A DNA stretch of 64,000 nucleotides from positions 10,459 to 74,458 of the forward strand of contig JAFGTF010000078.1 of assembly GCA_016934265.1 (NCBI GenBank), in the 5' to 3' direction. This stretch comes from Spirochaetota bacterium. Its GTDB lineage: Bacteria > Spirochaetota > B62-G9 > DRHN01. The translations under genes and the position numbers were made by a program. The stretch's first letter is position 1. The number at the start of each line of letters is the position of its first letter. This document shows, piece by piece, positions 4,776 to 64,000 of the stretch. The notes below the pieces were generated by a model that saw nothing but the letters and a program-made list of their open reading frames with translations, did not search any database and was not told where the DNA came from.

Positions 4776-4787
4776 AGCAGGGATCAC

Positions 4788-6557: not shown

Positions 6558-6565
6558 TTTTGCTT

Positions 6566-6600
6566 GACAGTTGCTGACGATATTATTACAATTTTAATGC
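6566..6600 (+). promoter_or_regulatory. Sigma70-like promoter for the rimP-nusA-infB operon
   Basis: TTGACA, then a 17-bp spacer (gttgctgacgatattat), then TACAAT, lying between the upstream gene stop (6557) and the rimP start. Confidence 0.5.
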
Positions 6601-6629
6601 TCGGGTAAAGAGGATGGCTTGTTCCTGCA

Positions 6630-6656
6630 AGAGTCGCGTGGCCGACTCTTTTTTTA
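6630..6656 (+). terminator. Intrinsic-terminator-like hairpin plus T7 run in the rimP leader (candidate attenuator)
   Basis: AGAGTCG-cgtggc-CGACTCT is a perfect 7-bp stem, immediately followed by TTTTTTT. It lies downstream of the promoter and upstream of the rimP start. Confidence 0.45.
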
Positions 6657-6701
6657 TTGTGGTTCTTGCGCAAGGCAAATTTTCATTCCAGACCGAATGC
6701 C

Positions 6702-7184: not shown

Positions 7185-7197
7185 TTTGGAGGATACA

Positions 7198-8697: not shown

Positions 8698-8786
8698 ACT
8701 CTTTTATTCCGGTTTTTCGGAATGTACGGCGGGGACGTGATGAAGGGCGATAGCATAGACAGTCAAGCGACAGTGCGGGGTAGTGT

Positions 8787-17105: not shown

Positions 17106-18434
17106 ATGGAAACCGATGTCAACAAGCTGCTCGAGAAGGCGAAACGGCCGTCTGAGGAGGCGCCCGGCCTCCACAAGAAATACAGGGGAAAGGTGGAGGT
17201 ACTGCCGCGGTGCAGGATAAAGGACATGAGCGACTTCAATATATGGTATACACCGGGGGTCTCCGCGCCGTGCCGGCTCATTCAGGATGACCCGGAGCTC
17301 GCCTATGAATATACCTGCAAATGGAACACCGTCGCCGTGGTATCGGACGGAACGAGAGTACTCGGGCTCGGAGATATCGGACCCCTCGCCGCGCTTCCAG
17401 TGATGGAGGGAAAGGCGCTCATTTTCAAGTATCTCGGCGGTGTGGACGCATTTCCGGTTTGCCTGGATACAAAGGACCCCGACCGTTTCATTGAGACGGT
17501 AAAGATTCTGCAGCCTTCATTCGGGGGGATAAACCTCGAGGATATCGCACAGCCGAAATGTTTCGAGATACTCGAGCGCCTGCGAAAGGAATGCGAGATA
17601 CCGGTATGGCACGACGATCAGCAGGGTACCGCGGCAGTGACCCTCGCGGGGCTCATTAACGCCCTGAAGGTCGTGGATAAGCGCATGGACGAAGCCAGGA
17701 TCGTTTTCTTAGGGGCCGGAGCTGCGAATATCCGGATAGCCGACGTCGTGTTCAAGGCAGGGGCCGATCCGAAGAAGTGCCTCATGGTTGACAGCAGGGG
17801 AATTCTTCACGAAGAGCGTGAGGACATACAGGGCGATCCCGAAAAGAAGGAGAAGTGGCATATCTGCCGGACAACGAACGGCGGACACGAAAAAGGAGAC
17901 GCCCCGCGAGCACTCGAAGGCGCAGATGTGCTTATCGCCCTGTCGAAGCCAGGTCCCGGTACGGTAAAGCCGGAGTGGATTCGGCGGATGGCCGTAAAGC
18001 CCGTAGTGTTCGCCTGCGCCAATCCGATACCCGAGATATGGCCGTGGGAGGCGAAAGAAGCCGGTGCTGCAGTCGTTGCCACCGGGAGGGGAGACTTTCC
18101 AAACCAGGTAAACAACTCGCTCGGATTTCCCGGTATCTTTAGGGGAACGCTCGATGTACGGGCAAAAACGATTACGGACGAGATGTGCATCGAAGCAGCG
18201 AAAGAGCTCGCGAAAACGGCCGAGGACAGGGGGCTTTCCGAGGACTATATCGTACCAACGATGGACGAGTGGGAGGTGTTCCCCCGTGAGGCCGCCGCGG
18301 TAGGCAGCAAGGCCGTGGCGCAGGGTATAGCGACAAAAGCGATGTCGAAAGAAGATATCTTCCGGGGTGCGGAAGATATCATACGTGAGGCGCGCGAGAA
18401 ATCGAGGCTGCTCATAGAAAGGTTATCCGGCTGA
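17106..18434 (+). CDS. NAD(P)-dependent malic enzyme (short form, no PTA domain)
   Basis: Malic enzyme N-terminal signature (FNIWYTPGVSAPC; VVSDGTRVLGLGDIGP...PVMEGKALIFK) and a Rossmann domain (VFLGAGAANI); AAGGAG RBS. Confidence 0.8.
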   Translation: METDVNKLLEKAKRPSEEAPGLHKKYRGKVEVLPRCRIKDMSDFNIWYTPGVSAPCRLIQDDPELAYEYTCKWNTVAVVSDGTRVLGLGDIGPLAALPVMEGKALIFKYLGGVDAFPVCLDTKDPDRFIETVKILQPSFGGINLEDIAQPKCFEILERLRKECEIPVWHDDQQGTAAVTLAGLINALKVVDKRMDEARIVFLGAGAANIRIADVVFKAGADPKKCLMVDSRGILHEEREDIQGDPEKKEKWHICRTTNGGHEKGDAPRALEGADVLIALSKPGPGTVKPEWIRRMAVKPVVFACANPIPEIWPWEAKEAGAAVVATGRGDFPNQVNNSLGFPGIFRGTLDVRAKTITDEMCIEAAKELAKTAEDRGLSEDYIVPTMDEWEVFPREAAAVGSKAVAQGIATKAMSKEDIFRGAEDIIREAREKSRLLIERLSG

Positions 18435-18439
18435 AAGCG

Positions 18440-20920
18440 ATGATACGTGCCGAGATGCTTCCTGTCTACCGTCATAGAGAAACGATCATAAAGGCCCTGA
18501 AAGGAAATCAGGTTATCGTGGTCGAGAGCCCGACGGGGTCGGGCAAGACGACACAGATCCCCAAGATACTCTATGACAGCGGTTTCGCTAATGAAGGCAT
18601 CATCGGTGTTACCCAGCCGAGGCGGATCGCCGCAGTCTCCGTCTCCGACTATATCGCAAGACAGTACAAAACCGAGATCCCCGGCCTCGTCGGCTACAAG
18701 ATGCGGTTCGTTGACGAGACGAACGAGGAGACGAGGATCACCGTCATGACCGACGGTATCCTGCTCCAGGAGATCAAGACGGACCCGCTCCTTTCACGGT
18801 ACGGCGTCATCATGGTGGACGAAGCCCACGAGCGCAGCCTCAACATCGATTTCATCCTCGGGCTGCTTAAGGAGGTGCTCCGCCGTCGGCCCGAGTTCAA
18901 GGTCGTCATCTCTTCGGCCACAATCAATACACGTGTTTTCTCCGAGTACTACGACCGCTGCCCGGTCGTTTCGATAGACGCCCGGATGTACCCGGTGAAG
19001 ATGGTCTACGATCCCATCGACGGCCCTCGCAGAATCGAGGCGATTACCGAGAAGATAGGCGAAATAGTGAAGGGTATAGAGGAAAAAAACCTTCCGGGTG
19101 ACGTGCTGATCTTTCTTTCGGGGGAAGGCCAGATCAAGGAGTGCGCCACGCACCTTCTTCACCTCGATAAGAAAGCCCATCTTGAGATACTTCTCTTATA
19201 CGGGAGGCTCTCCCGCGAGGAGCAGGAGCGCGTCTTCTTGGAGTTCTTGGGGAAGCGGAAGGTCATACTCGCCACGAATATCGCGGAAACGAGCGTCACG
19301 ATCGACGGGATACGCCACGTGATAGATCCGGGGTATGCGAAACTCAACTATTACAATCCGAGGAATTTTACCTCCTCCCTCGTCGAGATGCCGATATCGA
19401 AGGCATCCTGCGATCAGCGGAAGGGCAGGGCAGGCAGAACCGCCCCGGGGTTCTGCTACAGGCTTTACTCCAAACAGAGCTACGACACTCGGAGCCTTTA
19501 TACCGAGGAGGAGATCTACAGGACCGACCTCTCAGAGGTGATACTCCGTATGGCGGAGCTCGGTATACGGGATTTCGAGTCTTTCGACTTCATATCGGAT
19601 CCCGGGCCGGGGAAGATACGAAGCGCCGTCGAAGTGCTCGAGCTACTCGAAGCGATCGATTCCGACCGAGAGCTCACCGCGATCGGCAGAATGATGGTAC
19701 AGTTTCCGATAATACCGAGGATCTCCAGAATGATCGTGGCGGCGATACAGGAGTATCCCAATGTCTTGGAAGAGGTTCTCATCGCGAGCGCCTTCATCAA
19801 CAACAGGGCGCCGTTTCTCCTCCCGCACGGACTCGAGCTCGAAGCGAGGAAGGCGCACCATTCCTTCAGGCATCCTTTAGGCGATTTCGTGTCCTACCTC
19901 AAGATATTCCGGGCATACGTCAACGCCGGGGACAGCGAGGGGTTCTGTGCGAAGTACTATCTTGACAACAAGGGCATGGGGGAGATCTATAACGTAAAGC
20001 AGCAGCTTGCCGAGATCGTATCGGATATGGGGGTGCCGCTTACCGGAGGAGGAGATCTCTTTGAATATCTCTGCGCGGTCTCGAAGGGACTCATCCAGTT
20101 CGTATGTAAACAGACGAAGAAAGGGGTCTATTCGAGCCTTACGGCGTACGGGATCAAGATCCACCCCGGGTCGGTGATGTTCTCCAAGCGGCCGGAGTAT
20201 ATTGTCGCCGGCGAGGTGATGAGAACCTCCCAGATGTACGCCATGTCCGTTTCACCTCTTACCCCGGATCTCATCGGAAGGATTTCGGACCGGCTGTATA
20301 ACACCTTCGTACGGAAGAAGAGGGGGGCAAAAAAGAAGGTTCATGCCGCAGTGCGCCGCGACTATACGAACTATATCAAGATCGGAAGCGAGCGCTTCAC
20401 GATCGAGGCCGATAAGAAGCAGCATAAAGTCGTCGTGCTCCCGTATGACAGACTTAAAAATGCGATAGCGGGAATGGACGTCAATGGAATCGAAAATTAC
20501 AAGGGGCTCCGCGGCAGGGTTCTTTTAGGGGAGTACGAGCTGTTCGGAGGCTTCCGGCTCAACCGGATACTGGAGATCGTCGGCAGGATCGACGAAGTCG
20601 AAGAGATACCGGGCCGCTGGCCGAAAGGGGCGAGGTACGAGTACCTCGAAGATGCCTACCACATTGTCCGTCATATCCCGGATATCCTCAAGCTCTGCCG
20701 GAAGAAGAAGGAGACGAAGCGGCTCGGTTTCCTTACGCTGCTCACCGACAGAAACGGTCAATACTGGTACTCCTGCTACAGGGATTATCTTCAGGCCCTG
20801 GAGGAATCCGTTTCGAGCCTTGAGGCGATGATAGACGAAGATATCAACGTTCTCGATAAAGAGCAGGAGGAGACGGTGAGCCGGACCTACGGGCGGCTCA
20901 ACGAGATCCTAGAAAAGTAG
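18440..20920 (+). CDS. DEAH-box ATP-dependent helicase, HrpB/HrpA family
   Basis: Motif I VVESPTGSGKTTQIP, motif II MVDEAHERS, helicase C-terminal and HA2-like regions. The ~826-aa length is closer to HrpB. Confidence 0.7.
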   Translation: MIRAEMLPVYRHRETIIKALKGNQVIVVESPTGSGKTTQIPKILYDSGFANEGIIGVTQPRRIAAVSVSDYIARQYKTEIPGLVGYKMRFVDETNEETRITVMTDGILLQEIKTDPLLSRYGVIMVDEAHERSLNIDFILGLLKEVLRRRPEFKVVISSATINTRVFSEYYDRCPVVSIDARMYPVKMVYDPIDGPRRIEAITEKIGEIVKGIEEKNLPGDVLIFLSGEGQIKECATHLLHLDKKAHLEILLLYGRLSREEQERVFLEFLGKRKVILATNIAETSVTIDGIRHVIDPGYAKLNYYNPRNFTSSLVEMPISKASCDQRKGRAGRTAPGFCYRLYSKQSYDTRSLYTEEEIYRTDLSEVILRMAELGIRDFESFDFISDPGPGKIRSAVEVLELLEAIDSDRELTAIGRMMVQFPIIPRISRMIVAAIQEYPNVLEEVLIASAFINNRAPFLLPHGLELEARKAHHSFRHPLGDFVSYLKIFRAYVNAGDSEGFCAKYYLDNKGMGEIYNVKQQLAEIVSDMGVPLTGGGDLFEYLCAVSKGLIQFVCKQTKKGVYSSLTAYGIKIHPGSVMFSKRPEYIVAGEVMRTSQMYAMSVSPLTPDLIGRISDRLYNTFVRKKRGAKKKVHAAVRRDYTNYIKIGSERFTIEADKKQHKVVVLPYDRLKNAIAGMDVNGIENYKGLRGRVLLGEYELFGGFRLNRILEIVGRIDEVEEIPGRWPKGARYEYLEDAYHIVRHIPDILKLCRKKKETKRLGFLTLLTDRNGQYWYSCYRDYLQALEESVSSLEAMIDEDINVLDKEQEETVSRTYGRLNEILEK

Positions 20921-20961
20921 CGCCGCGTACGCGCGTACACCGCGGGCTTTTGAATACGCGC

Positions 20962-20971
20962 GGGGGGGGGG
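20962..20971. repeat. G10 homopolymeric tract in the hrpB-lacI intergenic region
   Basis: cgcGGGGGGGGGGatgggg, read directly; intergenic. Confidence 0.9.
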
Positions 20972-21094
20972 ATGGGGTACGTCCTTATTTAAAAAACAGA
21001 CTTTCGTATCTAAATGAGTGTGACTGCCTTTCGAGTATAATTATTCTTCATTTTCGTTGACAATCGCTTTGCAGGGTGGTACCATGTGTTACCA

Positions 21095-21110
21095 TTGTAA
21101 TCGATTACAA
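21095..21110. promoter_or_regulatory. 16-bp perfect palindrome TTGTAATCGATTACAA: LacI/GalR-type operator immediately upstream of the LacI-family gene
   Basis: Perfect inverted repeat matching the LacI-family operator consensus (TGTAA.CG.TTACA), 9 bp upstream of the ATG at 21119. A candidate -35 TTGACA (21057-21062) and -10 TACCAT lie upstream. Confidence 0.6.
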
Positions 21111-21118
21111 GAAGCGAT

Positions 21119-22126
21119 ATGAACAAACGGTTGAACATAGCCGAAGTGGCCAAGGCTGCGGGAGTTTCCACCGCAACGGTTTCGAGGGTTCTCAATGAAA
21201 AGCCGTTCGTGAGGGAAAATACCAGGCGGAAGGTCCTTCGGGTGATCGACAAGACGAACTACAGGGTCAACGCGGTCGCAAGGAACCTCAGACGGAAAAA
21301 AACGCACTCGATCGGTATAATCATAAGCAACGTATTGAGCCCCTTTTATTCCGTCATTGCAAAGGCGGTGGAGGACGTCGCGCTTTGCAACAACTTCAGC
21401 ATGGTACTGTGCAACGGGGGCGATAAACCAAAAAAGGAGCGCCGGTACCTGCAGGTTCTTTTCGAGAACAGGGTCGACGGCATAATCATTTCACCTACCG
21501 GGGAAAACGCCGACTATCTGAAACTTCTTTTATCCAGCGGAATCGCAGTCTGCCTCATCGACAGGAAGGTGAGCGGCATGGTATGTGATTCCGTCATGGT
21601 CAACAACCGCGAGGCATCGAAGGAGGCGGTAGCGCACCTTCTCGAGCGCGGATACAGACGGATCGGTCTGATTTCCGGCCCGAAAGAGCGTACAACGGGT
21701 TATCTGCGAATGGCGGGGTACCTCGATGCTCACAAGGAGTACGGCATCCCCCCGCAGGAGCGGTTTATCCGGTACGGGGATTTCTCACTCGAATCTGGAA
21801 GAAAAAACGCCGCCCTTCTTCTTTGTGAGAGCGATCTCGATGCGCTGTACGTTGCGAATACGGACATGGCGATGGGAGCGTACGGGCTGTTGAAGGAACG
21901 GGGCGTCGTCATACCGGACGACATGGGTTTCGTGATGTTCGACGACCCAGACTGGACCAGGCTTGTCACACCGAAGCTCACCGCGGTGAGTCAGCCGGTA
22001 TACGAGCTTGGTTCAACGGCGGCGAAGATGCTGTTTAGGCGCCTTCAGATGCCGCCGGACTATGTGAAGACGGATACCGTACAGACGGTGCTGAATGCAA
22101 AGCTCGTACGCCGCGGTTCCGTGTGA
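21119..22126 (+). CDS. LacI-family transcriptional regulator
   Basis: N-terminal HTH (LNIAEVAKAAGVSTATVSRVLNEKPFVRENTRRKVLRVIDKTNYRVNAVARNL) and a periplasmic-binding-protein-like sugar-binding core. Confidence 0.9.
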   Translation: MNKRLNIAEVAKAAGVSTATVSRVLNEKPFVRENTRRKVLRVIDKTNYRVNAVARNLRRKKTHSIGIIISNVLSPFYSVIAKAVEDVALCNNFSMVLCNGGDKPKKERRYLQVLFENRVDGIIISPTGENADYLKLLLSSGIAVCLIDRKVSGMVCDSVMVNNREASKEAVAHLLERGYRRIGLISGPKERTTGYLRMAGYLDAHKEYGIPPQERFIRYGDFSLESGRKNAALLLCESDLDALYVANTDMAMGAYGLLKERGVVIPDDMGFVMFDDPDWTRLVTPKLTAVSQPVYELGSTAAKMLFRRLQMPPDYVKTDTVQTVLNAKLVRRGSV

Positions 22127-22266
22127 GAGGAGGTTCGGCACGTACCGCGTCGCGGAATTCGCGCGGGAGCGTTTAGGCGCGAATCGTATTCTTTTTCGCC
22201 GTGTGAATGGTGAAATCGGATTTATTAATCGTAACGGGTGCTTATTTCAAATAGCGAGGTGATCGA

Positions 22267-52753: not shown

Positions 52754-53719
52754 ATGAAACCCGAGACTAAACCATTATTCAATCAAAAACGGAATATTGT
52801 TGAACAATTCAGCCTCTCCGAATCAATAGTCGTATACCCCGACGACTGTCTTGATATGCTAAAAAATATCCCCGATGAATCGATCCAACTAATCGTTACA
52901 TCACCTCCATATAATATTGGCAAAGAGTACGAGAAGAAGTTACATCTCGAATTGTATATCCAACAACAAGCCCAGGTAATTACCGAATGTGTACGGACAT
53001 TGTCTCCTAAAGGTAGTATATGCTGGCAAGTCGGTAACTATGTTGACAGAGGGGCAATCATACCTTTGGATACAGCTCTATATCCTATCTTCACGAATTT
53101 GCACCTTAGTATGAGGAATCGTATTATCTGGCATTTTGAACACGGGCTACATTGTAGTCGTCGCTTCTCTGGGCGCTACGAAACGATTATATGGTTCACC
53201 AAGTCAGATGAGTATGTTTTTAATCTGGATGCAGTACGAGTTCCTCAAAAATATCCCGGAAAAAAATATTTTAAAGGTCCCAAGGTTGGCCAATATTCAT
53301 GTAACCCACTTGGTAAGAATCCTGGGGATATGTGGGTAATCCCAAATGTCAAGAGCAATCATATTGAGAAGACAGAACATCCTTGCCAATTTCCTGTTGA
53401 ATTAATTGAACGCTTGGTACTTTCACTTACAAATGAGGGGGATTGGGTGATTGATCCTTTCTTGGGAACCGGGACATCGATAATTGCTGCCATTCGTCAT
53501 GGTAGGCGAGGCGCTGGTGCAGAAACTGTTTCAAAGTATATTAATATAGCGAAGCGGAGGATTAATCAGGAAATTGAAGGAACATTGAGGACCCGCCCAA
53601 TGGACAGACCGGTTTTTAATCCCATAAGTTCTGGAAATAGCCTGACTTTTTGTCCATGGGAAAAGAACAATGAACAGAATAAATTATTTGAGAAAAACCA
53701 GAAATATAAAAAAGAATAA
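52754..53719 (+). CDS. Type II DNA methyltransferase (beta-class, SPPY motif; N4-cytosine or N6-adenine)
   Basis: IQLIVTSPPYNIGKEY catalytic motif IV near the N-terminus, SAM-binding D.F.GTGTS near the C-terminus (beta-class order); low-GC gene. Confidence 0.8.
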   Translation: MKPETKPLFNQKRNIVEQFSLSESIVVYPDDCLDMLKNIPDESIQLIVTSPPYNIGKEYEKKLHLELYIQQQAQVITECVRTLSPKGSICWQVGNYVDRGAIIPLDTALYPIFTNLHLSMRNRIIWHFEHGLHCSRRFSGRYETIIWFTKSDEYVFNLDAVRVPQKYPGKKYFKGPKVGQYSCNPLGKNPGDMWVIPNVKSNHIEKTEHPCQFPVELIERLVLSLTNEGDWVIDPFLGTGTSIIAAIRHGRRGAGAETVSKYINIAKRRINQEIEGTLRTRPMDRPVFNPISSGNSLTFCPWEKNNEQNKLFEKNQKYKKE

Positions 53720-53723
53720 ATCT

Positions 53724-54335
53724 ATGAAAATTACAGAAATATATTCACATTTAAATGGGCTTGAATTTTTAATCGTTCATAAGGAAACTCTTTGGAAGGA
53801 GATACAATCTGTTATTAAGGATGTTAATGCAAACCGATGTAGAACTAAGGTTTCTAAAGAAAAGACAATGAAAGGAAAGTTACTATATAGCCCGGTAGAT
53901 ATGAACGCGGCTTTCAAAAAGCTGCTTCGAGAAAAATCATGGGATGAAAGCCGGGTCAGCTATTGGGTTACGAGAAGCGAAAAATTGATCCGAAAGACAC
54001 TTACGATGTCGGCAGAAGAGCAGAAGAGAGAGATAGAATCAGCAGGTGAGATACCGATCTTCAGTTACAATCAAACAGACTTTGTCAAGGATAGAGTGGC
54101 TGTTGAGGTGCAATTCGGTAAATATTCGTTCGTCGCTTATGATCTTTTTGTTAAACATCTTGCTTTCTATGTGGGTGATCGTATTGATGTTGGGGTCGAG
54201 ATTCTTCCGATGAAGTCACTACAAAGCCAGATGAGTTCAGGTGTCCCATATTTTGAGGGGGAATTTTATAATGTTGTTCGTCAGGGGAGAGGGGTGCCGG
54301 CAGTTCCTCTCGTGCTTATAGGTATAGAATCATAA
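53724..54335 (+). CDS. Type II restriction endonuclease, BglII/BstYI-like
   Basis: KDRVAVEVQFGKYSFVAYDLFV and PLVLIGIES resemble BglII, recalled from memory as ...LVEVQFSNYPF... and ...PIRLVGLIED. ~203 aa; starts 5 nt after the methyltransferase stop. Confidence 0.6.
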   Translation: MKITEIYSHLNGLEFLIVHKETLWKEIQSVIKDVNANRCRTKVSKEKTMKGKLLYSPVDMNAAFKKLLREKSWDESRVSYWVTRSEKLIRKTLTMSAEEQKREIESAGEIPIFSYNQTDFVKDRVAVEVQFGKYSFVAYDLFVKHLAFYVGDRIDVGVEILPMKSLQSQMSSGVPYFEGEFYNVVRQGRGVPAVPLVLIGIES

Positions 54336-54726: not shown

Positions 54727-55095
54727 TCACTCGCGAAACCACTCTTTGGCCTCGCCCAGCGATCCGAATACCTTCGTCTCGAAGGAACTCTTGGTCAATT
54801 CGGTTACCGTCTCGAACATTTGCGAGAAGCTGTACTCGAGGTAGGCGGGAGCTATTATCGCCGTTTTGCCGCCCCCCCTGCGGGCCCGCTGCTTGTCCCA
54901 GATATCGACGAGCCTCTTCACCGTCCCGGGCGAAAGGTTGATCATCTGCGCGAAAGAGAAATCCCATATAACATACGGCGTATGCACACCGCCGAAGAAC
55001 GATTGCGCGGTCTCCAGCAACTCTTCCGTCGATATGTCCCCGAAGCATTCCTGGATCGTATAGTTCTTCTTCGGAAAAATTATTGTCTCAATCAT
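54727..55095 (-). CDS. STAS-like (SpoIIAA / anti-sigma-antagonist-like) small protein, paralog 1 of 3
   Basis: 122 aa; shares with its two neighbours the pattern ..LT..E.L......F.......LWDF..........A..R.......R.GGKTAI.AP..LEY.......T.......FE..VF....EA..W. Confidence 0.45.
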   Translation of the reverse strand: MIETIIFPKKNYTIQECFGDISTEELLETAQSFFGGVHTPYVIWDFSFAQMINLSPGTVKRLVDIWDKQRARRGGGKTAIIAPAYLEYSFSQMFETVTELTKSSFETKVFGSLGEAKEWFRE

Positions 55096-55295
55096 CGATC
55101 GGCCGATCCTGTTTATTCCGTAGCCCGAAAAACGCACCGAATTCTCTGTGCCCCCGGGCGTATCCGGCCGGTTCGCGAGGCTTTATGAAGATGTGAAATA
55201 GTGCGCGGCCGCCCCTGCAATTACGGCGTTACGCCCGCATCTCTGTATCTATTCTAACGCAGTGAACGGAAGAACGCAAATATATTATGAAATAA

Positions 55296-55670
55296 TCACT
55301 CCTTTGAAAACAGCCACTGCCCGGCTTCTTCCGGTGTCCTGAACACCTTTGTTTCGTAGGGGAGCCCGCCTATACCGGCCCATGTCTGAATCATTCGGCC
55401 CAAGCCGTACTCGAGGTCCAACGGCGCTACAATCGCCGTTTTTCCGCCCTTTCTTTTGTTTCCGAGCGTGCGTATTGTCTCATAGATACGTCTCAACGCA
55501 TCCGTTGAAATATTTGTGGCCGAAAAACCGTCAAGCTGCCAAAGTGTGAATTTTGTAGGAGATTCTTTATAGAAAGAACGTATCGCCTCCAGGCACTCCT
55601 GTTCCGTCAAGGCACTGGAGCATTTGAAGACGGTCAGATCGTTTCGGTTGTCTACGACTTTTTCAACCAT
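55296..55670 (-). CDS. STAS-like small protein, paralog 2 of 3
   Basis: 124 aa; NDLTVFKCSSALTEQECLEAIRSFY...GGKTAIVAPLDLEYG...VFRTPEEAGQWL. The N-terminal pattern resembles the ..l.i.l.GeLd...a..l...l start of anti-sigma antagonists. Confidence 0.45.
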   Translation of the reverse strand: MVEKVVDNRNDLTVFKCSSALTEQECLEAIRSFYKESPTKFTLWQLDGFSATNISTDALRRIYETIRTLGNKRKGGKTAIVAPLDLEYGLGRMIQTWAGIGGLPYETKVFRTPEEAGQWLFSKE

Positions 55671-55700
55671 TGATGTGCCGTTTGACTTCTTATATTTATC

Positions 55701-56072
55701 TCACTGCGACAGAAGCCACAGCCGGGCTTCGTCGGTTGATCTAAACACCCTGAACTCGAATGGAATTTGCGTCAAATCGGTCATGGTTTGAAATATACGT
55801 ATCATCCCGTATTCGAGATCCGTCGGCGCCGCTACCGCGGTTTTTCCCCCCTCCCGTACGGATCCTATTTTCTTTACCACCGAAACGAACCGGTGCACGG
55901 CTTCTGTAGGTATGTTTTTCACGGAAGCGTCTACAAAGTCCCATAAGTTGTGTTTCGTGGGGGGGTGGTGATAAAGCGACTGCAAATTATCGAGAAGCTC
56001 CTGCTCCGTCAAATCGCCTGAGCAGGTGATTATTGTCAGATCGTTTTCATTGTCGTGCGTTATAGTAACCAT
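55701..56072 (-). CDS. STAS-like small protein, paralog 3 of 3
   Basis: 123 aa; NDLTIITCSGDLTEQELLDNLQSLY...GGKTAVAAPTDLEYG...VFRSTDEARLWL. Confidence 0.45.
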   Translation of the reverse strand: MVTITHDNENDLTIITCSGDLTEQELLDNLQSLYHHPPTKHNLWDFVDASVKNIPTEAVHRFVSVVKKIGSVREGGKTAVAAPTDLEYGMIRIFQTMTDLTQIPFEFRVFRSTDEARLWLLSQ

Positions 56073-56616
56073 TGACGGGCCTTTTTTAAAGCAGAGCGTT
56101 TACGGTCGTCCCTGCAATAGCTGCAGCTCTGTTTACGAGTCTTTTTACCTCATATCAGGATACTATTCAGTTTCCCGAATCGTCTTTTTTATGAGTTTCT
56201 ATCCTTTTTTTATATTTTAGCGTAAAAATGAGAAAAAACAATATGAAATACTGTGAAGACAGATCTTACACCGAACGCCCCGGATCCGGTAACCGACTAT
56301 TAGACTCCGGGAATAGGTGAGCGTAATGAATTCTCGGATCATGGAGACTGGCGGGTGATACTGATATAAATAAAACAAAATAATAAATCACTTGAATAAA
56401 ATAAATAAATGATACATAATAGATAATCTATAGGGCCTGCTATCGCCGATTCCTTCCAGGCAGGGTGGTGCAATAATCGGCTTTATCGACATTACCATAC
56501 ATATAGTGCTTGTACGTACGTGGAAGAAAGAAGTAGTTGATATCGAACAATCCCCTGTGAAGAAGGGCGTTTCAGTGTGCCGTTGTTGTTTCTATCCAAA
56601 TCAGTACGAATAGAAG

Positions 56617-57105
56617 ATGGAGAGACTGTTTTTAACAGGAAAGTGGATCGATCTTTCGATTCTTTTGTCCTTCCTATGTCCGATTACAATAATAGATATT
56701 AAAGAAAGAACGGTACCGGACGAACTCACTTTCATGGGGTTGATAATATTTTTCACCAAAGCAGTTTTTCATAATACCGTACCGGTTCTTATCTTACCGG
56801 TCAGAAGCATGGTGGGTTTCATGTTTGTGTTTATGCTCTTTTTATTAAAAAAAGGCGGTATCGGGCTCGGAGATGCAAAGCTTTGCGCCCTCCTGTCACT
56901 CGTGTTGGGATTCGACGGTTTTATGATAGTGCTATTTACCGCATCGTGTACCGGTATCGCATACATGCTTCTGATGCTCGGGCTGAAAAGAAAGCCTTTG
57001 AACCGTTCGATACCGTTTGCTCCGTTTCTGTCTATAGGGGGCATAACCGCCTATATTATGCAGGATACGTTTCGAAACCTTTTAGACCGCATACCGTTCT
57101 GGTAG
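56617..57105 (+). CDS. A24-family prepilin peptidase (short CpaA/TadV-like form)
   Basis: Polytopic membrane protein with the conserved GGIGLGDAKL aspartate motif and ...TVPDELTF; 162 aa, with no N-terminal zinc/methyltransferase domain. Confidence 0.65.
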   Translation: MERLFLTGKWIDLSILLSFLCPITIIDIKERTVPDELTFMGLIIFFTKAVFHNTVPVLILPVRSMVGFMFVFMLFLLKKGGIGLGDAKLCALLSLVLGFDGFMIVLFTASCTGIAYMLLMLGLKRKPLNRSIPFAPFLSIGGITAYIMQDTFRNLLDRIPFW

Positions 57106-57134
57106 GCGCATTCAACGGTTGAAAGAAGGCTGCG

Positions 57135-59342
57135 ATGAAAAGAGAGGTGCTGCTTGTTCTCCTTTTACTGATCATCCCGGTGCAACCCATAGCGGCGCAG
57201 CAAATCAGGGAAATAGAGTTCAGAGACCAAAAAGTAACCGATATCCTTCTCGCGGTGGGGGAACTTGCCGGAAAATCGATTGTACCCGACGAAACTGTAA
57301 CGGGGAGGGCCTCATATTACTTCGTGGAGACCGATTTCGATACCGCCTTACATGCGTTTATCGCTGCATACGGCCTTTACGTTACCGAGGAGAATGGAAT
57401 ATACTACGTTTCCAGGGTACATGTAGAGTTTGATGAAAATACGGCGACGGTTTCGATCGATGCGGATGAAGTGGAGATTCAGGCACTACTACGATCGCTC
57501 TCCGAAGCAATCGGGCGAACCATACTGTACGACCCCCTTCCTGCAATACCCGTTACGGTACATATCAAGAGTGTAGCGCCTGAAAAAGCGCTATCCATTC
57601 TTTTGCGAAAATATCATGGGTATGTGATAGATTCAGACACCGATTTTTATTATGTAAAGAAGGTTAGAAGAGACACGCAGGCAGCCGGACCGCCTTCAAA
57701 AGGGGACATCCGGGATGCTGTATCCAAAACCGGTGACCGCTACTCCGTCGAAGCGGATGAGATACTGTTCGGTGTTGTTATTAAAAGGCTGTTCGAAGAA
57801 GCGGGATTGGAGTACTCGCTTCTCACCACAAAAGAAACAATACTGAAGAATATTCGATATAATGATAAACCGTTTGAGACGTTGTTGAGAATCCTGCTCG
57901 AACAGGTACAGGCCGATTACAAGAGAATCGACGATGTCTATTATATATTCGAGGTTTCGAAAAGCGACGTGTTGAAACGGTATAAAACCGTGTTCAGGGT
58001 GAGGCTTCAGCATCTTTCAGCTCAGGAGCTACCCCAACTTCTTCCTCCTGATTTTGCCAAAGGCAGGTACTACACCATTGTGCCTGAATCGAACTCTGTG
58101 ATCCTCAACGGAAGTCTTGCCGAGATAGGTCCAATTCAGACCTTGCTGGAAGAATTGGACAAACCGTCTGATAGAGGGCGCTACTACAGGTTCGATCTGA
58201 ATCATCTGCAGACGAAAAACGTGAAAGCGTTTCTCCCCCCGGAATATAAGTATGCAGCCCCTGTTACCATTCCCGGGACCAACTCTTTTGTCCTGCGGCT
58301 GTCGGAGGATAAAAGAAAGTATCTTGACGACTATCTATCACTCATCGATATAGATCAAAAAGCGTATCCTGTCCGTCTGAAGTATATAAGAGCGGGTGAT
58401 CTGAAGAAACATGTTCCGGCGACGTTATCCGGTGAGGAAATCATCGAAACACATGACCCTTCGCTCGTTTTTGTAAAAGTTTCACCGCAAAGGATGGATA
58501 CCTTTTTTAGAGAGCTTGAATTACGGGACCGTCCGGTTCCGCAAATACGATACACGCTTCTCGTGGTTCAGTATCAAGACGGAGAAGCATTGAGCTGGAA
58601 TCAGAATATTTCTGACAATATGTTCGAAATACGGAAACCACCACAGGAAGGAGGCGGTGCATTCGTCGGCTCTATCGGGAAGGTATTCAACCTCAGCTTC
58701 GATATCGTATCGAACTTTGGATATCAGTTTGCGCTTCAGCTGAATCTCGATCTCAGCGAGGAGCGTGCCAAGGTGCTTGCCGATACAACGCTCAACGGAA
58801 TATCAGGGGAGGAGATACAGTTTCAGAATACGAGTACCTACCGGTACAGGGAATACGAAGTGGATCCGAATACCGGGGAGCTGATCCTGACAGGTGTCGT
58901 CCGCGAGATAACTTCAGGCTTGATCATCGTGATCAGGGGCTGGGTTTCGGGGGACGGCCTTATCACAATGGATGTCGAAGCAACGGTATCCAGGAGGGGG
59001 GCCGACGTGGCCATGGATACGGCCAAACCCCCGACGACCTTTGAGAAGATACTTAAAACTCATGTGTGTGCGCTTTCCGGTAGACCGGTGATAATAGGCG
59101 GCCTCATTACCGAGGAGAACAATATTACTGTTCAAAAGATCCCGGTAATAGGTGATATACCTCTGTTGGGTCTTCTTTTTAGATCGCAAAAAGAAACCGT
59201 AGACCGCTCGGAGTTTGTGATCTATATAGTGCCGTACGCCGAATACCCCGAATCGGGAGATATGAACGGTGGCCTTAAGATGGAAAAATTGTATCATAGG
59301 TTTTTCCGGGACCTGCCGGATTCATACGCATACCGTAATTGA
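57135..59342 (+). CDS. Secretin (GspD/PilQ family outer-membrane channel)
   Basis: Signal peptide MKREVLLVLLLLIIPVQPIAAQ; C-terminal secretin signature VIIGGLITEENNITVQKIPVIGDIPLLGLLFRSQKE. Confidence 0.8.
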   Translation: MKREVLLVLLLLIIPVQPIAAQQIREIEFRDQKVTDILLAVGELAGKSIVPDETVTGRASYYFVETDFDTALHAFIAAYGLYVTEENGIYYVSRVHVEFDENTATVSIDADEVEIQALLRSLSEAIGRTILYDPLPAIPVTVHIKSVAPEKALSILLRKYHGYVIDSDTDFYYVKKVRRDTQAAGPPSKGDIRDAVSKTGDRYSVEADEILFGVVIKRLFEEAGLEYSLLTTKETILKNIRYNDKPFETLLRILLEQVQADYKRIDDVYYIFEVSKSDVLKRYKTVFRVRLQHLSAQELPQLLPPDFAKGRYYTIVPESNSVILNGSLAEIGPIQTLLEELDKPSDRGRYYRFDLNHLQTKNVKAFLPPEYKYAAPVTIPGTNSFVLRLSEDKRKYLDDYLSLIDIDQKAYPVRLKYIRAGDLKKHVPATLSGEEIIETHDPSLVFVKVSPQRMDTFFRELELRDRPVPQIRYTLLVVQYQDGEALSWNQNISDNMFEIRKPPQEGGGAFVGSIGKVFNLSFDIVSNFGYQFALQLNLDLSEERAKVLADTTLNGISGEEIQFQNTSTYRYREYEVDPNTGELILTGVVREITSGLIIVIRGWVSGDGLITMDVEATVSRRGADVAMDTAKPPTTFEKILKTHVCALSGRPVIIGGLITEENNITVQKIPVIGDIPLLGLLFRSQKETVDRSEFVIYIVPYAEYPESGDMNGGLKMEKLYHRFFRDLPDSYAYRN

Positions 59343-59388
59343 GTAACGGTGCGCAGGCTTCAGTTATAGAAGAGGATGTACAACCGAG

Positions 59389-60864
59389 ATGGTGAGAGTA
59401 TCCATAGAAGGATTCAAACCGGAGGTCGACAGGGATCAGTATCCGATAGAGTTCGTAAAAACTCATTCTCTGTTGAAATTGAAAGAAACCAGGGATTCCG
59501 TGACAGTCGGAACATGCAGCCCGGTAAGCGCGGTGGTAATGGAGGAATTGAAAAATTACCATGGCAAGAAGATTAGATTCTTCCTGGTCGATAAAAGTGA
59601 GTTGTCGGCTTGGCTCGGAAGCAGGCTTTCAGACATAACCCTCCGGAGTCCGTCCGAGGCGGTGTATCTCAATCACCATACAAGACTCCTCATTGATAAG
59701 CTCGAAACGGATGCTCCTACCGTGAATCTTGTGAACAGTATCCTGATAGAAGGTATCAGGAGGGAGGTCTCTGATATTCACATAGAGGTCGATGCCGAAG
59801 CGACTGTGGTACGGTATCGTATAGACGGGCAGCTTCAAACCATCCATCGACTTACGCAGGAACGGTTCAACGGGATTTCCTCGCGTATCAAGGTCATGGC
59901 GAATCTGAATATAATGGAGCGGAGGCTTCCCCAGGACGGCAGGATTACGGTCCATCTCGACAGCGATGTTTTCGATATCAGGGTATCGATCATCCCGATA
60001 GTAGACGGAGAATCCATCGTTCTCAGGCTGTTCAATAAAAAAAGGAAACCGTTGAATATCGACCAGCTCGGGCTGCAGGGGGATGCCTTGATACGGATGA
60101 AGAGCCTGTATCACCGGACTCAGGGGCTCGTTCTCGTCACCGGCCCGACCGGGAGCGGTAAAACGACGACGTTAAACGCGGTTCTAAGAGAGTTGCGTTC
60201 GGAAAGCCTCAAGATAGTATCGATAGAGGATCCGGTTGAATACATTACCGACGGTGTCGACCAGATTCAGACGAACGAAAAGATCGGTCTTACGTTCGAT
60301 ACGATCCTGAAGAGGGTGCTCCGGCAGGATCCGAATATCATTATGGTCGGGGAAATACGGGACCTGCAGACTGCGGAGCTTGCGGTACGGGCCGCGCTGA
60401 CCGGTCATCTCGTGTTCTCGACGCTGCATACGAAGGACTCGGTATCCGTAGTAACGCGTCTGAAGAACATGGGAATAGAAGGATATCTCATAAGTGCGGT
60501 GTTGAAGGGCGCGCTTGCCCAGAGATTGGTCCGGAAGATATGCGACAAGTGCCGGGTAAAAAAGAAGATCGGGCATGCCGAGCGCATGCTCTTGCGGCGG
60601 TATGGTTTGGATGCCGATTTTCTCTTTCAAGGGAAAGGCTGTGAACGATGCAACGGAACGGGTTTCAACGGCCGGACAGGTATCTTCGAGCTGTTTGTCT
60701 CGAACGAGGAAATCGAAGCGATTATCGCTTCGGATCGGAGGGAATACGAAGTGCGGGAATTTCTCCTTTTAAGGGGAATGGAACGCCTTGTCATCGACGG
60801 CCTGAAAAAGGCGTGCAGCGGGGTAACGACTGTCGGGGAAGTGGAAAGGGTGGCGGAGGAGTAA
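59389..60864 (+). CDS. GspE/PilB-family secretion ATPase
   Basis: Walker A LVTGPTGSGKTTTLNAVL, Asp box, Walker B IIMVGEIRD, His box, and tetracysteine CDKC...CERCNGTG. Confidence 0.85.
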   Translation: MVRVSIEGFKPEVDRDQYPIEFVKTHSLLKLKETRDSVTVGTCSPVSAVVMEELKNYHGKKIRFFLVDKSELSAWLGSRLSDITLRSPSEAVYLNHHTRLLIDKLETDAPTVNLVNSILIEGIRREVSDIHIEVDAEATVVRYRIDGQLQTIHRLTQERFNGISSRIKVMANLNIMERRLPQDGRITVHLDSDVFDIRVSIIPIVDGESIVLRLFNKKRKPLNIDQLGLQGDALIRMKSLYHRTQGLVLVTGPTGSGKTTTLNAVLRELRSESLKIVSIEDPVEYITDGVDQIQTNEKIGLTFDTILKRVLRQDPNIIMVGEIRDLQTAELAVRAALTGHLVFSTLHTKDSVSVVTRLKNMGIEGYLISAVLKGALAQRLVRKICDKCRVKKKIGHAERMLLRRYGLDADFLFQGKGCERCNGTGFNGRTGIFELFVSNEEIEAIIASDRREYEVREFLLLRGMERLVIDGLKKACSGVTTVGEVERVAEE

Positions 60865-62060
60865 TGGCCGTTTATACCTGTAGGGTAAAAGACGGCAGTG
60901 GGAGAATAAGAAAAGTCAGGCAACAAGCCGTATCGGAAGAGAAAGCGGTGACTGCGCTGTTGCAGAACGATCTCTATCCATTGCTCATACGGACGACCGA
61001 AAGATATGGCGGGATACGGCGTGCGGGAAGTTCTCAAAAACTGCTTTCTGAGTTCACCGATACCATCGCGCTTCTTCTCTCCTCAGGCCTGACTCTGAAA
61101 GACTCGTTGGAGGTGGCCGCGGACAGTACCCCGAGAGGACGACTGAGAGAGCTCTACAAGATACTATTGAAGCGGATAGACAGCGGGCGGTCATTGGCTG
61201 AGGCGGTGCGATCGTGCGGGATACGATTTCCCCGTCTGTATGAAGGGCTGTTCAGGATCGGCGAAAAGCTCGGTTCTCTCGAAGGAAGTTTTCGAATGCT
61301 CTCCTCATACTATTTAAGAGAAAGAGCCTTGAGGGATAAGCTGATAAGCGCACTGATATATCCCGCGATGGTGCTGACTGTCGCATTTTCGGGTGTCGTG
61401 GTGATAACCGTTTACGTTCTCCCGAGGGTCACCGAGATATTCACCCAATTGGATACGGTTCTTCCGGTACGGATCGAATCCATTATTACAAGCGGCAGGA
61501 TCCTGCTCGTGCTCGCCATAGGTGGGGTCGTTCTTTTAGGCGGATTGGGATTCTTGTTTTCTTTCGCAAAGAAACGGAACTGGAAATCGGCTGCACAGCT
61601 CGATAGAATCATTTTCAAAATACCTGTAATCGGGTCAATGCAGCAACTTCGGGAGAACTACAAGTTTACCTGCTCAATGGAAGCGCTTTGTATGGGAGGG
61701 TATTCTTTGGAAGAAGCATTGCTGGAAGCGAGCTTCATCGTATCAAGCGGCACGTACAGATCCAGCATTCTTTCGGCAAGAAAGAGTATTCTAAAAGGCG
61801 GGACATTGGCGGATTCCTTCATTCGTAGCCGCGTCTTCCCGCAGCGGCTTTCGAGTTGGATAATGATCGGTGAACGATCGGGAAATATCGAGGGTGTGTT
61901 TTGTCAACTGCGGCGTTTTTTCGAAGCCGAGCTTGAAAAGTACAGCGCGAGATTCATCGGGTTGATAGAACCCGTACTGATACTCATCCTCGGTGCTGCG
62001 ATTATCACGATTATCGTCCTCTTTGTAATGCCGATCCTGTCCCTGTACGGGAGTCTCTAA
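60865..62060 (+). CDS. GspF/PilC-family inner-membrane platform protein
   Basis: ~398 aa with duplicated GspF-like halves and three TM regions. ATG at 60865 immediately after the gspE stop, with a GGAGGA RBS; the track ORF is extended upstream in the overlapping frame. Confidence 0.75.
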
Positions 62061-62216
62061 ATGGACTTAATCGAAATGTAATTTTTTTATAGAAAGGATA
62101 TCACACACATTTAGATATGGAAGTCTTTGTTGAAAGAAGTGTCGTTTTACATCCGCTGGTCGTTCGGGTATATGTCGATGGTAAGATGATACGGTTTGTC
62201 GTGAGAAAAGGGTAGG

Positions 62217-62708
62217 GTGATGTGCCTGGGCGTGAAGAAAAACGATAAGGGTACCGGAATAATAAAAGATGTTTTCAGGGCTTGGATCGCCTTCGGGAAA
62301 AAAGAGGCGGGATTTACGCTTATCGAGATCATGGTGGCGTCTGTGGTACTGCTCATACTCATCAGTGTCACCGGTTTCGTAATATCCAAACAGGTCGAAA
62401 AGGCAAGGGTGATCAGCTGCAGAAATCAGATTCACATCTTTTCCATGGCCCTGAATGCTTATTTTCTCGACTGCGAAATATACCCGACAACCGAGCAGGG
62501 GCTCGGCGCACTTTGGGAGCGGCCCGTTTTCGAACCGATGCCGGAGAATTGGAACGGTCCCTATATAGATAGCGCGGTTCCCCGGGATCCATGGAGCAAT
62601 GCGTATCAGTATTTTTGTCCGGGCAGTTACGGTCTGCCGTTCGGCATACGGTCGCTTGGGGCGGACGGCAGGGAAGGGGCGGACGATATAAACTCCTGGG
62701 AGCGGTAA
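62217..62708 (+). CDS. Type II secretion major pseudopilin (GspG-like)
   Basis: Prepilin N-terminus GFTLIEIMVASVVLLILISV and the GspG-specific DPWSNAYQY (DPWGNPYxY) motif. The true start may lie downstream of 62217, which implies an unusually long leader. Confidence 0.75.
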   Translation: MMCLGVKKNDKGTGIIKDVFRAWIAFGKKEAGFTLIEIMVASVVLLILISVTGFVISKQVEKARVISCRNQIHIFSMALNAYFLDCEIYPTTEQGLGALWERPVFEPMPENWNGPYIDSAVPRDPWSNAYQYFCPGSYGLPFGIRSLGADGREGADDINSWER

Positions 62709-62908
62709 TGAAGAGCCAATTCCGATGCTTCATACTGTTGGATACACTCATCTCTTTGTTTTTAGCCGGTCTTATCCTCGTAGTTGTATTCGTATCCGTC
62801 AGCCTCGGACTGAAGCATACGTCGGGAATGAAGCGGCATAGTAGAAATCTGATACTTTTGATGAACCGGTATGAAGAGGATAAGAAAATTACTTACTCTT
62901 CGGAGTAA
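62708..62908 (+). CDS. Possible small minor pseudopilin-like protein
   Basis: ATG overlapping the gspG stop (TAATG); MKSQFRCFILLDTLISLFLAGLILVVVF is a hydrophobic prepilin-like N-terminus with Asp in place of the canonical Glu. Confidence 0.3.
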   Translation: MKSQFRCFILLDTLISLFLAGLILVVVFVSVSLGLKHTSGMKRHSRNLILLMNRYEEDKKITYSSE

Positions 62909-63404
62909 CGGCGGGTATTCGTTTTTGGAGATAACCGTCGCCATGGTAATCATTTCAATTATCGGAATAACGGTATGGCAGGGAATTATACATGTGTCTG
63001 CGCTGCTGAACAAAATACATTCGGTACATACCGGAGTACGGGATATGATTATGATGGAGGCGCAGATCAGAAGTGAGGTGTCGATGATCCGAGTGCCGTT
63101 CTGGATGCCGTATGTTCCGGTGAGAGAAACAAACGGCGAGTTAAGAATCGGTTGTTACAAGGGATGCCTCACAAGTGAGCTTTATTTTCGGTTCAGCGAA
63201 GGATGTCTCGAGATGGGATGTGATAACGGCTCCGACAAGACGGTACTGCAACGGTACGGTCCATACGAAGAGGTCATTATCGAAACCGAACACAGGCAGA
63301 AAGGCGAAGGGGTCTTGATATCATTTTCCTTCTATTATCCCGGAAGCAGGAAAAAAACGCTAGTTATTTCGACCGGTATTTGCAGCAACCCGTTTGTCAG
63401 ATAG
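62871..63404 (+). CDS. Minor pseudopilin (prepilin-type N-terminal cleavage/methylation domain)
   Basis: GYSFLEITVAMVIISIIGI matches G-F-[ST]-L-[IL]-E plus a hydrophobic helix. Confidence 0.6.
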   Translation: MKRIRKLLTLRSNGGYSFLEITVAMVIISIIGITVWQGIIHVSALLNKIHSVHTGVRDMIMMEAQIRSEVSMIRVPFWMPYVPVRETNGELRIGCYKGCLTSELYFRFSEGCLEMGCDNGSDKTVLQRYGPYEEVIIETEHRQKGEGVLISFSFYYPGSRKKTLVISTGICSNPFVR

Positions 63405-63413
63405 AATCCGAAA

Positions 63414-64000
63414 ATGAACGAGAAGGGTTTTACAACCATCATACTGCTCTGTGCTATGGTGCTTTTTACCTCGATATCTCTAGGTATAGCGGCCCTGCTT
63501 CGCTTTTCGGGGGCACGGCTGAAGCGCTGGGAGAGCGAATTCGAAGAACGGATGATGCTTCATGAGGAGGCAAGCCGTGTCATTACATTACTGGTGGAAG
63601 ACGAAACACCGGCATCGGATTCCCCTGCGGACCGTGTATGGGAGTACGTACATACTTTGAAAAGAGATCGGCTGTCAGTTGTTTTGAGAGACATATCGAG
63701 CCGCTATGGTATTAACTGGGTACGGAAGGACGTTCTCGATTATTCCGGGTTGTTGCGGCCGGGAAAGTCATCGGGTGAGTTACAGCAGTATAGGTGGGAT
63801 ATGGGGCCTGTTCTGCGACTTTTGCCGGAGTATGGATACTTTTTTTCCGAAGCAAGTATCCATATGTATTTTACTCCGTACAGTTACTTCAATATCAACA
63901 TTTCCGACGAGTTTATCATCGAGAAAATTGTTCTTATTCGTACCGGTGACAGCGATAGAGCACGCCTTCTTCGGAAGAGACTCCATAAGTTTTGGGAAAC
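63414..64000 (+). CDS. GspK-like or other pseudopilus-associated protein, 3-prime partial (open to the window end)
   Basis: My own translation from the ATG at 63414 reads through to position 64000 with no stop. N-terminus MNEKGFTTIILLCAMVLFTSISLGIAAL is prepilin/GspK-like. Absent from the ORF track because the ORF is not closed. Confidence 0.4.
   Translation, partial: MNEKGFTTIILLCAMVLFTSISLGIAALLRFSGARLKRWESEFEERMMLHEEASRVITLLVEDETPASDSPADRVWEYVHTLKRDRLSVVLRDISSRYGINWVRKDVLDYSGLLRPGKSSGELQQYRWDMGPVLRLLPEYGYFFSEASIHMYFTPYSYFNINISDEFIIEKIVLIRTGDSDRARLLRKRLHKFWE

Follow-up and report, generated by a model that had tools for sequence, protein, structure and literature searches.

A probable type II secretion operon, divergent but typical of its lineage, in a Spirochaetota bacterium

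The last part of a 64,000-nucleotide stretch from an uncultured Spirochaetota bacterium (contig JAFGTF010000078.1 of assembly GCA_016934265.1, forward-strand positions 10,459 to 74,458; the whole stretch is called the window here) carries, between positions 56617 and 64000, genes related to those of type II secretion systems (T2SS). With a probability of about 80%, this segment is the 5′ two thirds of a single 12-gene operon that encodes a complete T2SS-type machine, inherited and typical of the lineage and not foreign to it. The operon is a divergent variant of the textbook T2SS, typical of its lineage and neither streamlined nor foreign. Gene content, gene order, the domain and fold assignments and the conservation across spirochaetes were established in the present analysis.

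The open reading frames (ORFs) listed for the region from 54 to 64 kb include a series on the + strand in which all genes are co-directional and tightly packed. The junctions are mostly overlaps or gaps of less than 50 nucleotides (nt), with the exception of about 156 nt before gspG. An initial annotation of the window had described these genes in the order peptidase-D-E-F-G-minor pseudopilins, and both the order and the coordinates were confirmed on the + strand by the ORF list, Pfam and NCBIfam. The annotation had also proposed that the contig be extended downstream. A public contig (Logan SRR13394437; L001) is identical to the last 5213 nt of the window and continues 3.5 kb beyond it. It adds the rest of the K-like gene (337 amino acids, aa), followed by genes for 395-aa, 175-aa and 160-aa proteins and a 228-aa lipoprotein, with abutting or overlapping junctions. 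The full order is short prepilin peptidase, secretin, GspE-class ATPase, GspF, GspG, helix-only mini-pseudopilin, 177-aa pseudopilin, GspK-like protein, GspL-like protein, GspM/PilO-like protein, a small bitopic GspC/PilP-like candidate and the lipoprotein. The cluster of 'seven or more genes' described earlier therefore contains all the genes named for it and has a total of 12, not about seven. The annotation had allowed for C, L and M past the end of the window; this proved correct for L and M, which are encoded directly downstream, and is plausible for C by position and topology. A T2SS streamlined by the loss of C, L and M was not borne out, since the L-like, M-like and candidate C genes stand just past the window end. 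No paralogue of any operon gene and no second ATPase, including a PilT/PilU retraction ATPase, was found in the operon or in the 67.5 kb examined.

Membership in the T2SS class was judged component by component in the TXSScan/MacSyFinder sense (PMC6668835). The major pseudopilin (162 aa, 62220..62708) scored 117.7 bits with the NCBIfam model TIGR01710, above its cut-off of 88.85, and matched Pfam T2SSG (104.8 bits) and N_methyl; the ComGC model gave 19.4 (cut-off 75). Its identity to E. coli GspG is 38%, and the two have the DPW motif (DPWSNAYQY, 62586-62612) and the C-terminal S.G.DG...D region in common. The score above the cut-off, together with the conservation of the motif and the C-terminal region, identifies it as GspG. 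Its leader (62220-62310) is unusually long, with about 26-30 residues before the G/FTLIE cleavage site; it is much longer than that of E. coli or of the related locus L002 (12 residues), and leader length varies widely among the orthologues.

The assembly ATPase of the GspE/PilB class (491 aa, 59389..60864) matched Pfam T2SSE with 390 bits and has an N1E-type N-terminal domain (MshEN/N1E, 27.6 bits). Among NCBIfam models, GspE scored highest (491.5 bits, cut-off 630), followed by PilB (450.1), ComGA (254.4, cut-off 300), PilT (167) and the TadA type (48.8). Against the PDB, GspE 4pht gave 338.6 bits and PilB 6olj 330.9 bits. Control by c-di-GMP through an MshEN domain was considered and rejected, as the Pfam match is to an N1E-type domain and no RLG-type motif was seen by eye. 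The gene for the inner-membrane platform protein (398 aa, 60864..62060) abuts or overlaps the stop of gspE, and the gene call on L001 starts at the ATG that corresponds to position 60864 of the window. Pfam T2SSF matched this protein in two stretches (141 bits). GspF was the top NCBIfam model (218.8 bits, cut-off 424), ahead of HofC (174.9), PilC (143.7) and ComGB (106, cut-off 240), in keeping with a polytopic platform protein of the GspF type.

The secretin (735 aa, 57135..59342) contains the Pfam domains Secretin (92 bits) and Secretin_N (40.8 bits) and a weak N0/STN match at aa 110-164. Its AlphaFold2 model, made from an 89-sequence alignment, had a predicted local distance difference test score (pLDDT) of 78, rising to about 90 over the N0-like domains. 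The predicted layout consists of a signal peptide, three tandem N0-like domains (aa 24-93, 95-176 and 196-273), three N1-N3-type ring domains (aa 285-464), the barrel (aa 470-705) and a C-terminal helix (aa 712-724). In the model, the three tandem N0-like domains have a beta-alpha-beta-beta-alpha-beta-beta topology. The first two (N0a and N0b) matched the N0 region of E. coli GspD in BLAST searches (E=0.003 and 0.007, respectively) and also each other (E=0.004), and the third is predicted from the model alone. When the model was searched with Foldseek, PulD (6hcg_A) was the first match (E=2.6e-23), followed by InvG and GspD entries; PilQ entries gave about 1e-13 to 1e-11 and RcpA E=3e-8. No AMIN domain was present in the model. 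The NCBIfam GspD equivalog gave 95 against a cut-off of 351; the Pfam domains and PulD as the closest fold place the protein among the GspD-type secretins. The protein is identical to NCBI MBN2323950.1, from a 78-kb contig of a 'Spirochaetes bacterium' metagenome-assembled genome (MAG), and both it and the L-like protein are named 'hypothetical protein' in the database record.

These results support the earlier assignment of the cluster to T2SS rather than to Tad or competence systems, with GspG above its cut-off, GspE and GspF as the top NCBIfam models, the secretin model closest to PulD, and L-like and M-like proteins, with a C candidate, encoded immediately beyond. The family assignment by HMM search, which the initial annotation had offered as a way to overturn its reading, placed the ComGA, PilT and TadA-type models far below the Gsp models. 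All three competence models (ComGA 254.4, ComGB 106, ComGC 19.4) fell below both their own cut-offs and the Gsp models. For Tad, the TadA-type score of 48.8 stands against 491.5 bits for GspE, and the RcpA fold match of 3e-8 against 2.6e-23 for PulD.

The K, L, M and C proteins of the window's own operon were left unclassified by Pfam and NCBIfam, apart from a weak PilN match for L and chance-level matches for M and C. Six-sequence profiles of the four proteins retrieved nothing relevant from PDB sequences, and hhalign comparisons with GspK, L, M and C of E. coli K-12 were not significant. The 395-aa L-like protein is predicted to contain an actin-like cytoplasmic domain, a transmembrane helix, a coiled coil and a ferredoxin-like periplasmic domain; its AlphaFold2 model consists of two RNase-H-like subdomains, a long transmembrane/coiled-coil helix and an alpha-beta-beta-alpha-beta-beta domain. 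An exhaustive HMM search collected 1362 cluster representatives of this family. With a 90-sequence profile, Myxococcus PilN was the best match in the PDB (E=0.003), in a match that runs from the transmembrane helix through the coiled coil into the first part of the periplasmic domain, and PilM followed weakly on the N-terminal domain. Pfam PilN was matched by 16 of the 90 family members and T2SSL by none of them. As modelled, the architecture is that of GspL, a PilM-PilN fusion, in that an actin-like domain is joined to a transmembrane helix and a ferredoxin-like domain.

The 175-aa M-like protein aligned with the periplasmic part of the L-like protein over 115 columns (hhalign probability 88%, E=2.9e-6). 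Trimmed alignments were used for this comparison, as three entries of the L family are L+M(+C) fusions that inflate the untrimmed score. Judged by these alignments, the relation is that expected for GspM with GspL, or for PilO with PilN, and the M-like protein qualifies as GspM in being a bitopic paralogue of the L periplasmic region; no direct match to E. coli GspM or in the PDB was obtained. The protein encoded after M in all six loci is bitopic (154-164 aa, 160 aa here) and has a conserved C-terminal domain of about 70 aa. A trimmed alignment of this domain gave only chance beta-trefoil and SSRP1 matches in the PDB, and no PDZ domain was seen in the protein. It is a plausible GspC/PilP equivalent, a candidate by position and topology only, in the place that XpsN or PilP would take. 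D, F, G, L and M were each recognised as T2SS components. GspC is mandatory in the final TXSScan model and is defined there by a transmembrane helix and an HR domain that contacts the secretin N0 (PMC6668835). In L007, the M-like and C-like proteins form a single 297-aa ORF (18146-19039), and the entries P0210, P0258 and P0226 are single L+M or L+M+C ORFs of 512-617 aa, which are either real fusions or read-through gene calls. The operon ends with the 228-aa lipoprotein, in which an LLSC lipobox is followed by a beta-sandwich of the CarboxypepD_reg family and by TPR repeats. As its matches are to generic TPR only, its identification as a known pilotin, PilF or GspS, was rejected.

The remaining components are the prepilin peptidase and the minor pseudopilins. 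The peptidase (162 aa, 56617..57105) is of the short type, with an A24 domain and without the N-terminal methyltransferase/zinc domain. Peptidase_A24 was the sole Pfam domain found (64.3 bits, residues 15-118), and no NCBIfam model matched. Both catalytic aspartates are kept, D27 (56695-56697) and D86 in GLGD (56872-56874), and about 75 N-terminal residues present in E. coli GspO are missing. Of the two activities of the bifunctional GspO, the protein would accordingly keep the peptidase half and lack the methyltransferase half, and because that domain is absent the pseudopilins are probably not N-methylated by this enzyme. Its orthologues in L004, L006 and L007 are 152-157 aa long and likewise stand first in the operon.

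The mini-pseudopilin (66 aa, 62708..62908) has room only for the N-terminal hydrophobic segment and a short tail. It matched nothing in Pfam or NCBIfam. Its orthologues in L004, L005 and L007 are 70-72 aa long, stand at the corresponding point of the operon and have the motif DG(F/Y)ILLDVL.AL.IA in common, so that a pseudopilin of 66-72 aa is kept in four loci. The next gene (177 aa, 62871..63404) encodes a minor pseudopilin with a G/Y-S-F-L-E prepilin N-terminus (Pfam N_methyl E=8e-4) and has orthologues in all five related loci. Neither protein could be assigned to GspH, I or J from Pfam, NCBIfam or the orthologues. The GspK-like large minor pseudopilin begins at 63414 and runs off the window at 64000, so that the first 195 of its 337 codons are in the window; the gene ends at position 5640 of L001, that is, at 64427 of the extended sequence. 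Its N-terminus is prepilin-like (MNEKG/FTTII), and the acidic +5 residue is absent in six of six orthologues. The L006 orthologue matched NCBIfam T2SS_GspK with E=5.8e-6 and 26 bits, below the cut-off of 130, and the searches of the K-like family with Pfam, the six-sequence PDB profile and hhalign against E. coli K-12 GspK were all negative.

The conservation of the operon was addressed with related loci on five further Spirochaetota contigs (L002, L004, L005, L006 and L007), which include contigs of 3.97 Mb and 2.0 Mb. The order from peptidase to lipoprotein is the same in all five. More than 120 secretin homologues were listed, with 42-76% identity, and each named one is from Spirochaetes, Spirochaetia or Spirochaetales. 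Given the shared order and the spirochaetal homologues, the suggestion of an architecture unusual for this lineage is not supported. Each locus has flanking genes of its own. Some variation was seen within the operon. In L002, a 302-aa ORF with a signal peptide and no family match (8853-9761) replaces the mini-pseudopilin between gspG and the pseudopilin gene that follows. The operon is reduced in L003 (9821-17743), which comes from a Spirochaetales MAG at a greater distance (29% secretin identity); it encodes the secretin, the ATPase, a GspF shortened to 309 aa, GspG, two ORFs without an assignment (133 and 423 aa) and a lipoprotein of smaller size.

The initial annotation had reported a drop in GC content of the cluster against a core of ~57%, and an A-tract-rich stretch ahead of it, and had taken both as signs of horizontal acquisition. 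The drop in GC held. The GC of the operon is 0.486 and that of the core (positions 1-52000) 0.550, with a standard deviation (sd) of 0.011 and a minimum of 0.528 among operon-sized core windows; the intergenic region 56073-56616 has a GC of 0.393. GC at third codon positions (GC3) was 0.555 +/- 0.054 for the 12 operon genes and 0.708 +/- 0.025 for 22 core genes. As GC3 is lowered too, the dip is real and extends to synonymous sites. In five relatives, the GC of the operon is 0.33, 0.33, 0.39, 0.56 and 0.61 and tracks that of each host, and operon GC3 is 0.06-0.10 below that of the flanking genes in four of the five; the deficit of 0.15 in the window is the largest. Since the dip recurs in hosts of very different composition, it is alone no sign of recent acquisition, and the inference of horizontal transfer from GC is a weak one. 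An older transfer within the phylum is conceivable, though less likely than inheritance, and acquisition from outside the phylum is not supported.

A horizontally acquired island would in its weak form have moved between spirochaetes from a lower-GC donor, and in its strong form would be foreign to the lineage. The former gains from the size of the window deficit in GC and GC3 and from the lower-GC operons of the closest relatives, L008 (76% secretin identity, GC3 0.48) and L005 (60%, GC 0.33). The flanks are unlike in every genome, and mobile or defence genes occur near the operon, namely a restriction-modification pair in the window, an integrase and a transposase in L002, and IS110 with a toxin-antitoxin pair in L006. 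Against these stand the operon GC of 0.33-0.61 that follows the host and the recurrence of the dip, and the strong form is ruled out by the spirochaetal origin of every named homologue. A tRNA-bounded island was rejected, the window having no tRNA gene, and no integrase or flanking repeat was identified adjoining the operon. The restriction-modification genes form a separate GC3 class (0.37), much lower than the operon, from which they are separated by a core-like gene (GC3 0.73). Recent or older, an island origin is unlikely, with a minor share of the probability left to it, and vertical inheritance of a lineage-typical operon is the better account.

The restriction-modification pair itself (52754-54335; BglII-type restriction endonuclease and N6/N4 DNA methylase genes), with GC of about 0.40 and GC3 of about 0.37 against 0.71 in the core, makes a much better case for a recent insertion than the secretion operon does. 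The mobile genes of the related loci lie within a few kb upstream of the operon, and comprise a transposase fragment and a tyrosine recombinase in L002 (559-2030) and an IS110 transposase with RelB/ParE in L006 (1389-2754).

Several observations weigh against an inherited, complete T2SS. The operon GC3 is 0.15 below the core, by more than 5 sd. None of the secretin, GspE and GspF reaches its NCBIfam equivalog cut-off, and the sequence scores put the ATPase at nearly the same distance from GspE as from PilB. The likeness of the L-like protein to PilM/PilN is no smaller than that to GspL, and its model, from a five-sequence alignment, is of only moderate confidence (pLDDT 63.7). For the C-like protein, neither the PDB profile nor hhalign detected any similarity to GspC or PilP. 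The minor pseudopilins number three instead of four, and the mini-pseudopilin of the window has a cysteine at -1 where three orthologues have the cleavage-site glycine, and therefore may escape processing by the peptidase.

Part of this evidence is shared with a surface type IV-like pilus, used for adhesion, motility or DNA uptake and not for secretion. The ATPase is as near to PilB as to GspE, PilN and PilM are among the top matches of the L-like protein in sequence and fold, the L, M and C genes follow the order of pilM/N-O-P, and the operon has a TPR lipoprotein, which we take to be reminiscent of the type IVa pilus (T4aP) pilotins PilF/PilW/Tgl. Other features speak against a T4aP. The major subunit is a GspG equivalog and not PilA, with the DPW motif and the C-terminal region as in E. 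coli GspG; a single protein combines the PilM-like and PilN-like parts, in the manner of GspL; no PilT/PilU is present in the 67.5 kb; the secretin is without AMIN domains and is nearer to PulD/GspD than to PilQ; and a GspK-like subunit without the acidic +5 residue is present. A pilus is thus an improbable product of the operon, and a T2SS-type machine is preferred.

In a less likely reading, the operon may stand for a separate branch of the type IV filament superfamily, widespread in spirochaetes and placed close to the point where T4aP and T2SS diverged. The equidistance of the ATPase between PilB and GspE, a PilM-PilN fusion closer in sequence to PilN/PilM than to GspL, the platform order of pilMNOP, the TPR lipoprotein and a reduced tip complex with a helix-only pseudopilin would all fit such a position, as would the three N0 domains, which could provide extra docking sites for the platform or the cargo. 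If so, the system would, as a natural intermediate, lend itself to the question of how secretion machines arose from pilus machines.

Upstream of the peptidase gene, the AT-rich intergenic region (56073..56616, + strand, GC 0.393) is a probable promoter region. Sigma-70-like matches at 56355-56384 and 56392-56420 were no more than those in shuffled sequence, and a riboswitch or leader RNA was rejected, as no Rfam family was found in 56073-56616 at E<=1. Ahead of this region, on the - strand (54727-56072), lie three small ORFs in tandem (136, 124 and 123 aa), paralogues with 30-46% identity; they share the motif GGKTA..AP.DLEYG and have no Pfam match. They were rejected as conserved regulators of the operon, as no homologue occurs in the flanks of any related locus.

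That the machine secretes, what it would carry and what the C-like protein, the mini-pseudopilin and the lipoprotein do in it we infer, and the steps that follow are drawn from the established T2SS model. The peptidase would trim the leader peptides of GspG and of the minor pseudopilins, probably without N-methylating them. A hexamer of the ATPase would dock on the cytoplasmic domain of the L-like protein and on GspF, and would drive the assembly of a short GspG pseudopilus capped by a complex of the K-like protein and the minor pseudopilins. The L/M/C platform in the inner membrane would couple the pseudopilus to the enlarged N0 region of the secretin, through which folded periplasmic proteins would be pushed out. 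The terminal lipoprotein may help to target or assemble the secretin. Genes of the polymorphic-toxin type flank the operon in two relatives. In L004, an RHS/YD-repeat protein and 'Collar' domain proteins are encoded at 19925-22175; in L006, the regions 3278-9365 and 19943-22202 hold genes for a giant AHH-nuclease protein and for a 1872-aa protein with an Imm26 immunity gene. These genes could be cargo or coincidence.

A secretin and a pseudopilus might instead export a non-protein polymer, for example exopolysaccharide slime. Secretins of the GspD/PilQ family are reported to be needed for slime secretion, and pseudopilin genes have been linked to polysaccharide export, in cyanobacteria and myxobacteria (PMC12475490). 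The operon here, which has no named protein cargo, would allow such a role. It carries an apparently complete GspE-F-G-K-L-M set, which is the set for protein secretion, and no glycosyltransferase, polysaccharide synthase or Wza-type gene occurs in the operon or the immediate flanks of the six loci. Polymer export is accordingly very improbable, and protein secretion remains the preferred function.

Spirochaete type II secretion outside Leptospira is essentially undescribed in the literature searched, in which no description of this operon architecture was found. Automated annotation would take the system for an incomplete one, since none of the Pfam and NCBIfam cut-offs tried is reached by K, L, M or C. 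The conserved 12-gene module, found across many environmental Spirochaetota, offers a template for annotating the system and points to an unexplored route of exoenzyme release in these polymer-degrading bacteria. The variant parts, namely the triple-N0 secretin, the mini-pseudopilin and the peptidase without a methyltransferase domain, could inform the coupling between platform and secretin in T2SS. General principles are left unchanged by the finding.

Among known systems, the operon has most of its parts in common with the proteobacterial T2SS (Gsp/Pul/Eps/Xcp, for example gspC-O of E. coli K-12). Shared are the secretin, the GspE-class ATPase, GspF, GspG and the A24 peptidase, a large pseudopilin without the acidic +5 residue, a GspL-type L protein, an M protein paralogous to the periplasmic part of L and the lack of a retraction ATPase. 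It is unlike them in that the peptidase, encoded first in the operon, has no N-terminal domain, the N0-like domain of the secretin occurs three times and not once, and the minor pseudopilins are three, with a length of only 66-72 aa for one of them. The C candidate follows M and is without a PDZ or coiled-coil domain, and K, L, M and C escape the Pfam and NCBIfam models and hhalign against E. coli Gsp. A conserved lipoprotein with a beta-sandwich and TPR is found where a pilotin of the GspS/AspS type might be expected. In the Xps system of Xanthomonas, likened here by description only, the GspC-equivalent xpsN also follows xpsL-xpsM at the cluster end and is not ahead of gspD; by the same description, Xps differs in having the secretin gene last, the full H-I-J-K pseudopilins and a single N0. 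The only likeness to the Tad pilus is the short architecture of the peptidase, as in TadV.

Within the phylum, T2SS were listed in Spirochaetes after models were relaxed, with Leptospira cited (Denise et al., PMC6668835), and Leptospira GspD has been studied as a vaccine antigen (PMC7768463). Leptospira is reported to have GspD and GspG homologues and a multi-gene gsp cluster, with 14-17 gsp genes (PMC7768463, PMC6668835) against the 12 genes here, a comparison made by description. As no Leptospira name occurs among the 120 listed secretin homologues (at least 42% identity), the two clusters probably represent distinct lineages. The reduced T2SS of chlamydiae is reportedly without minor pilins and GspLM (PMC6668835). 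It is likewise non-proteobacterial, with accessory parts that escape the standard models, and the spirochaetal operon differs from it in that the K-like, L-like and M-like proteins are present.

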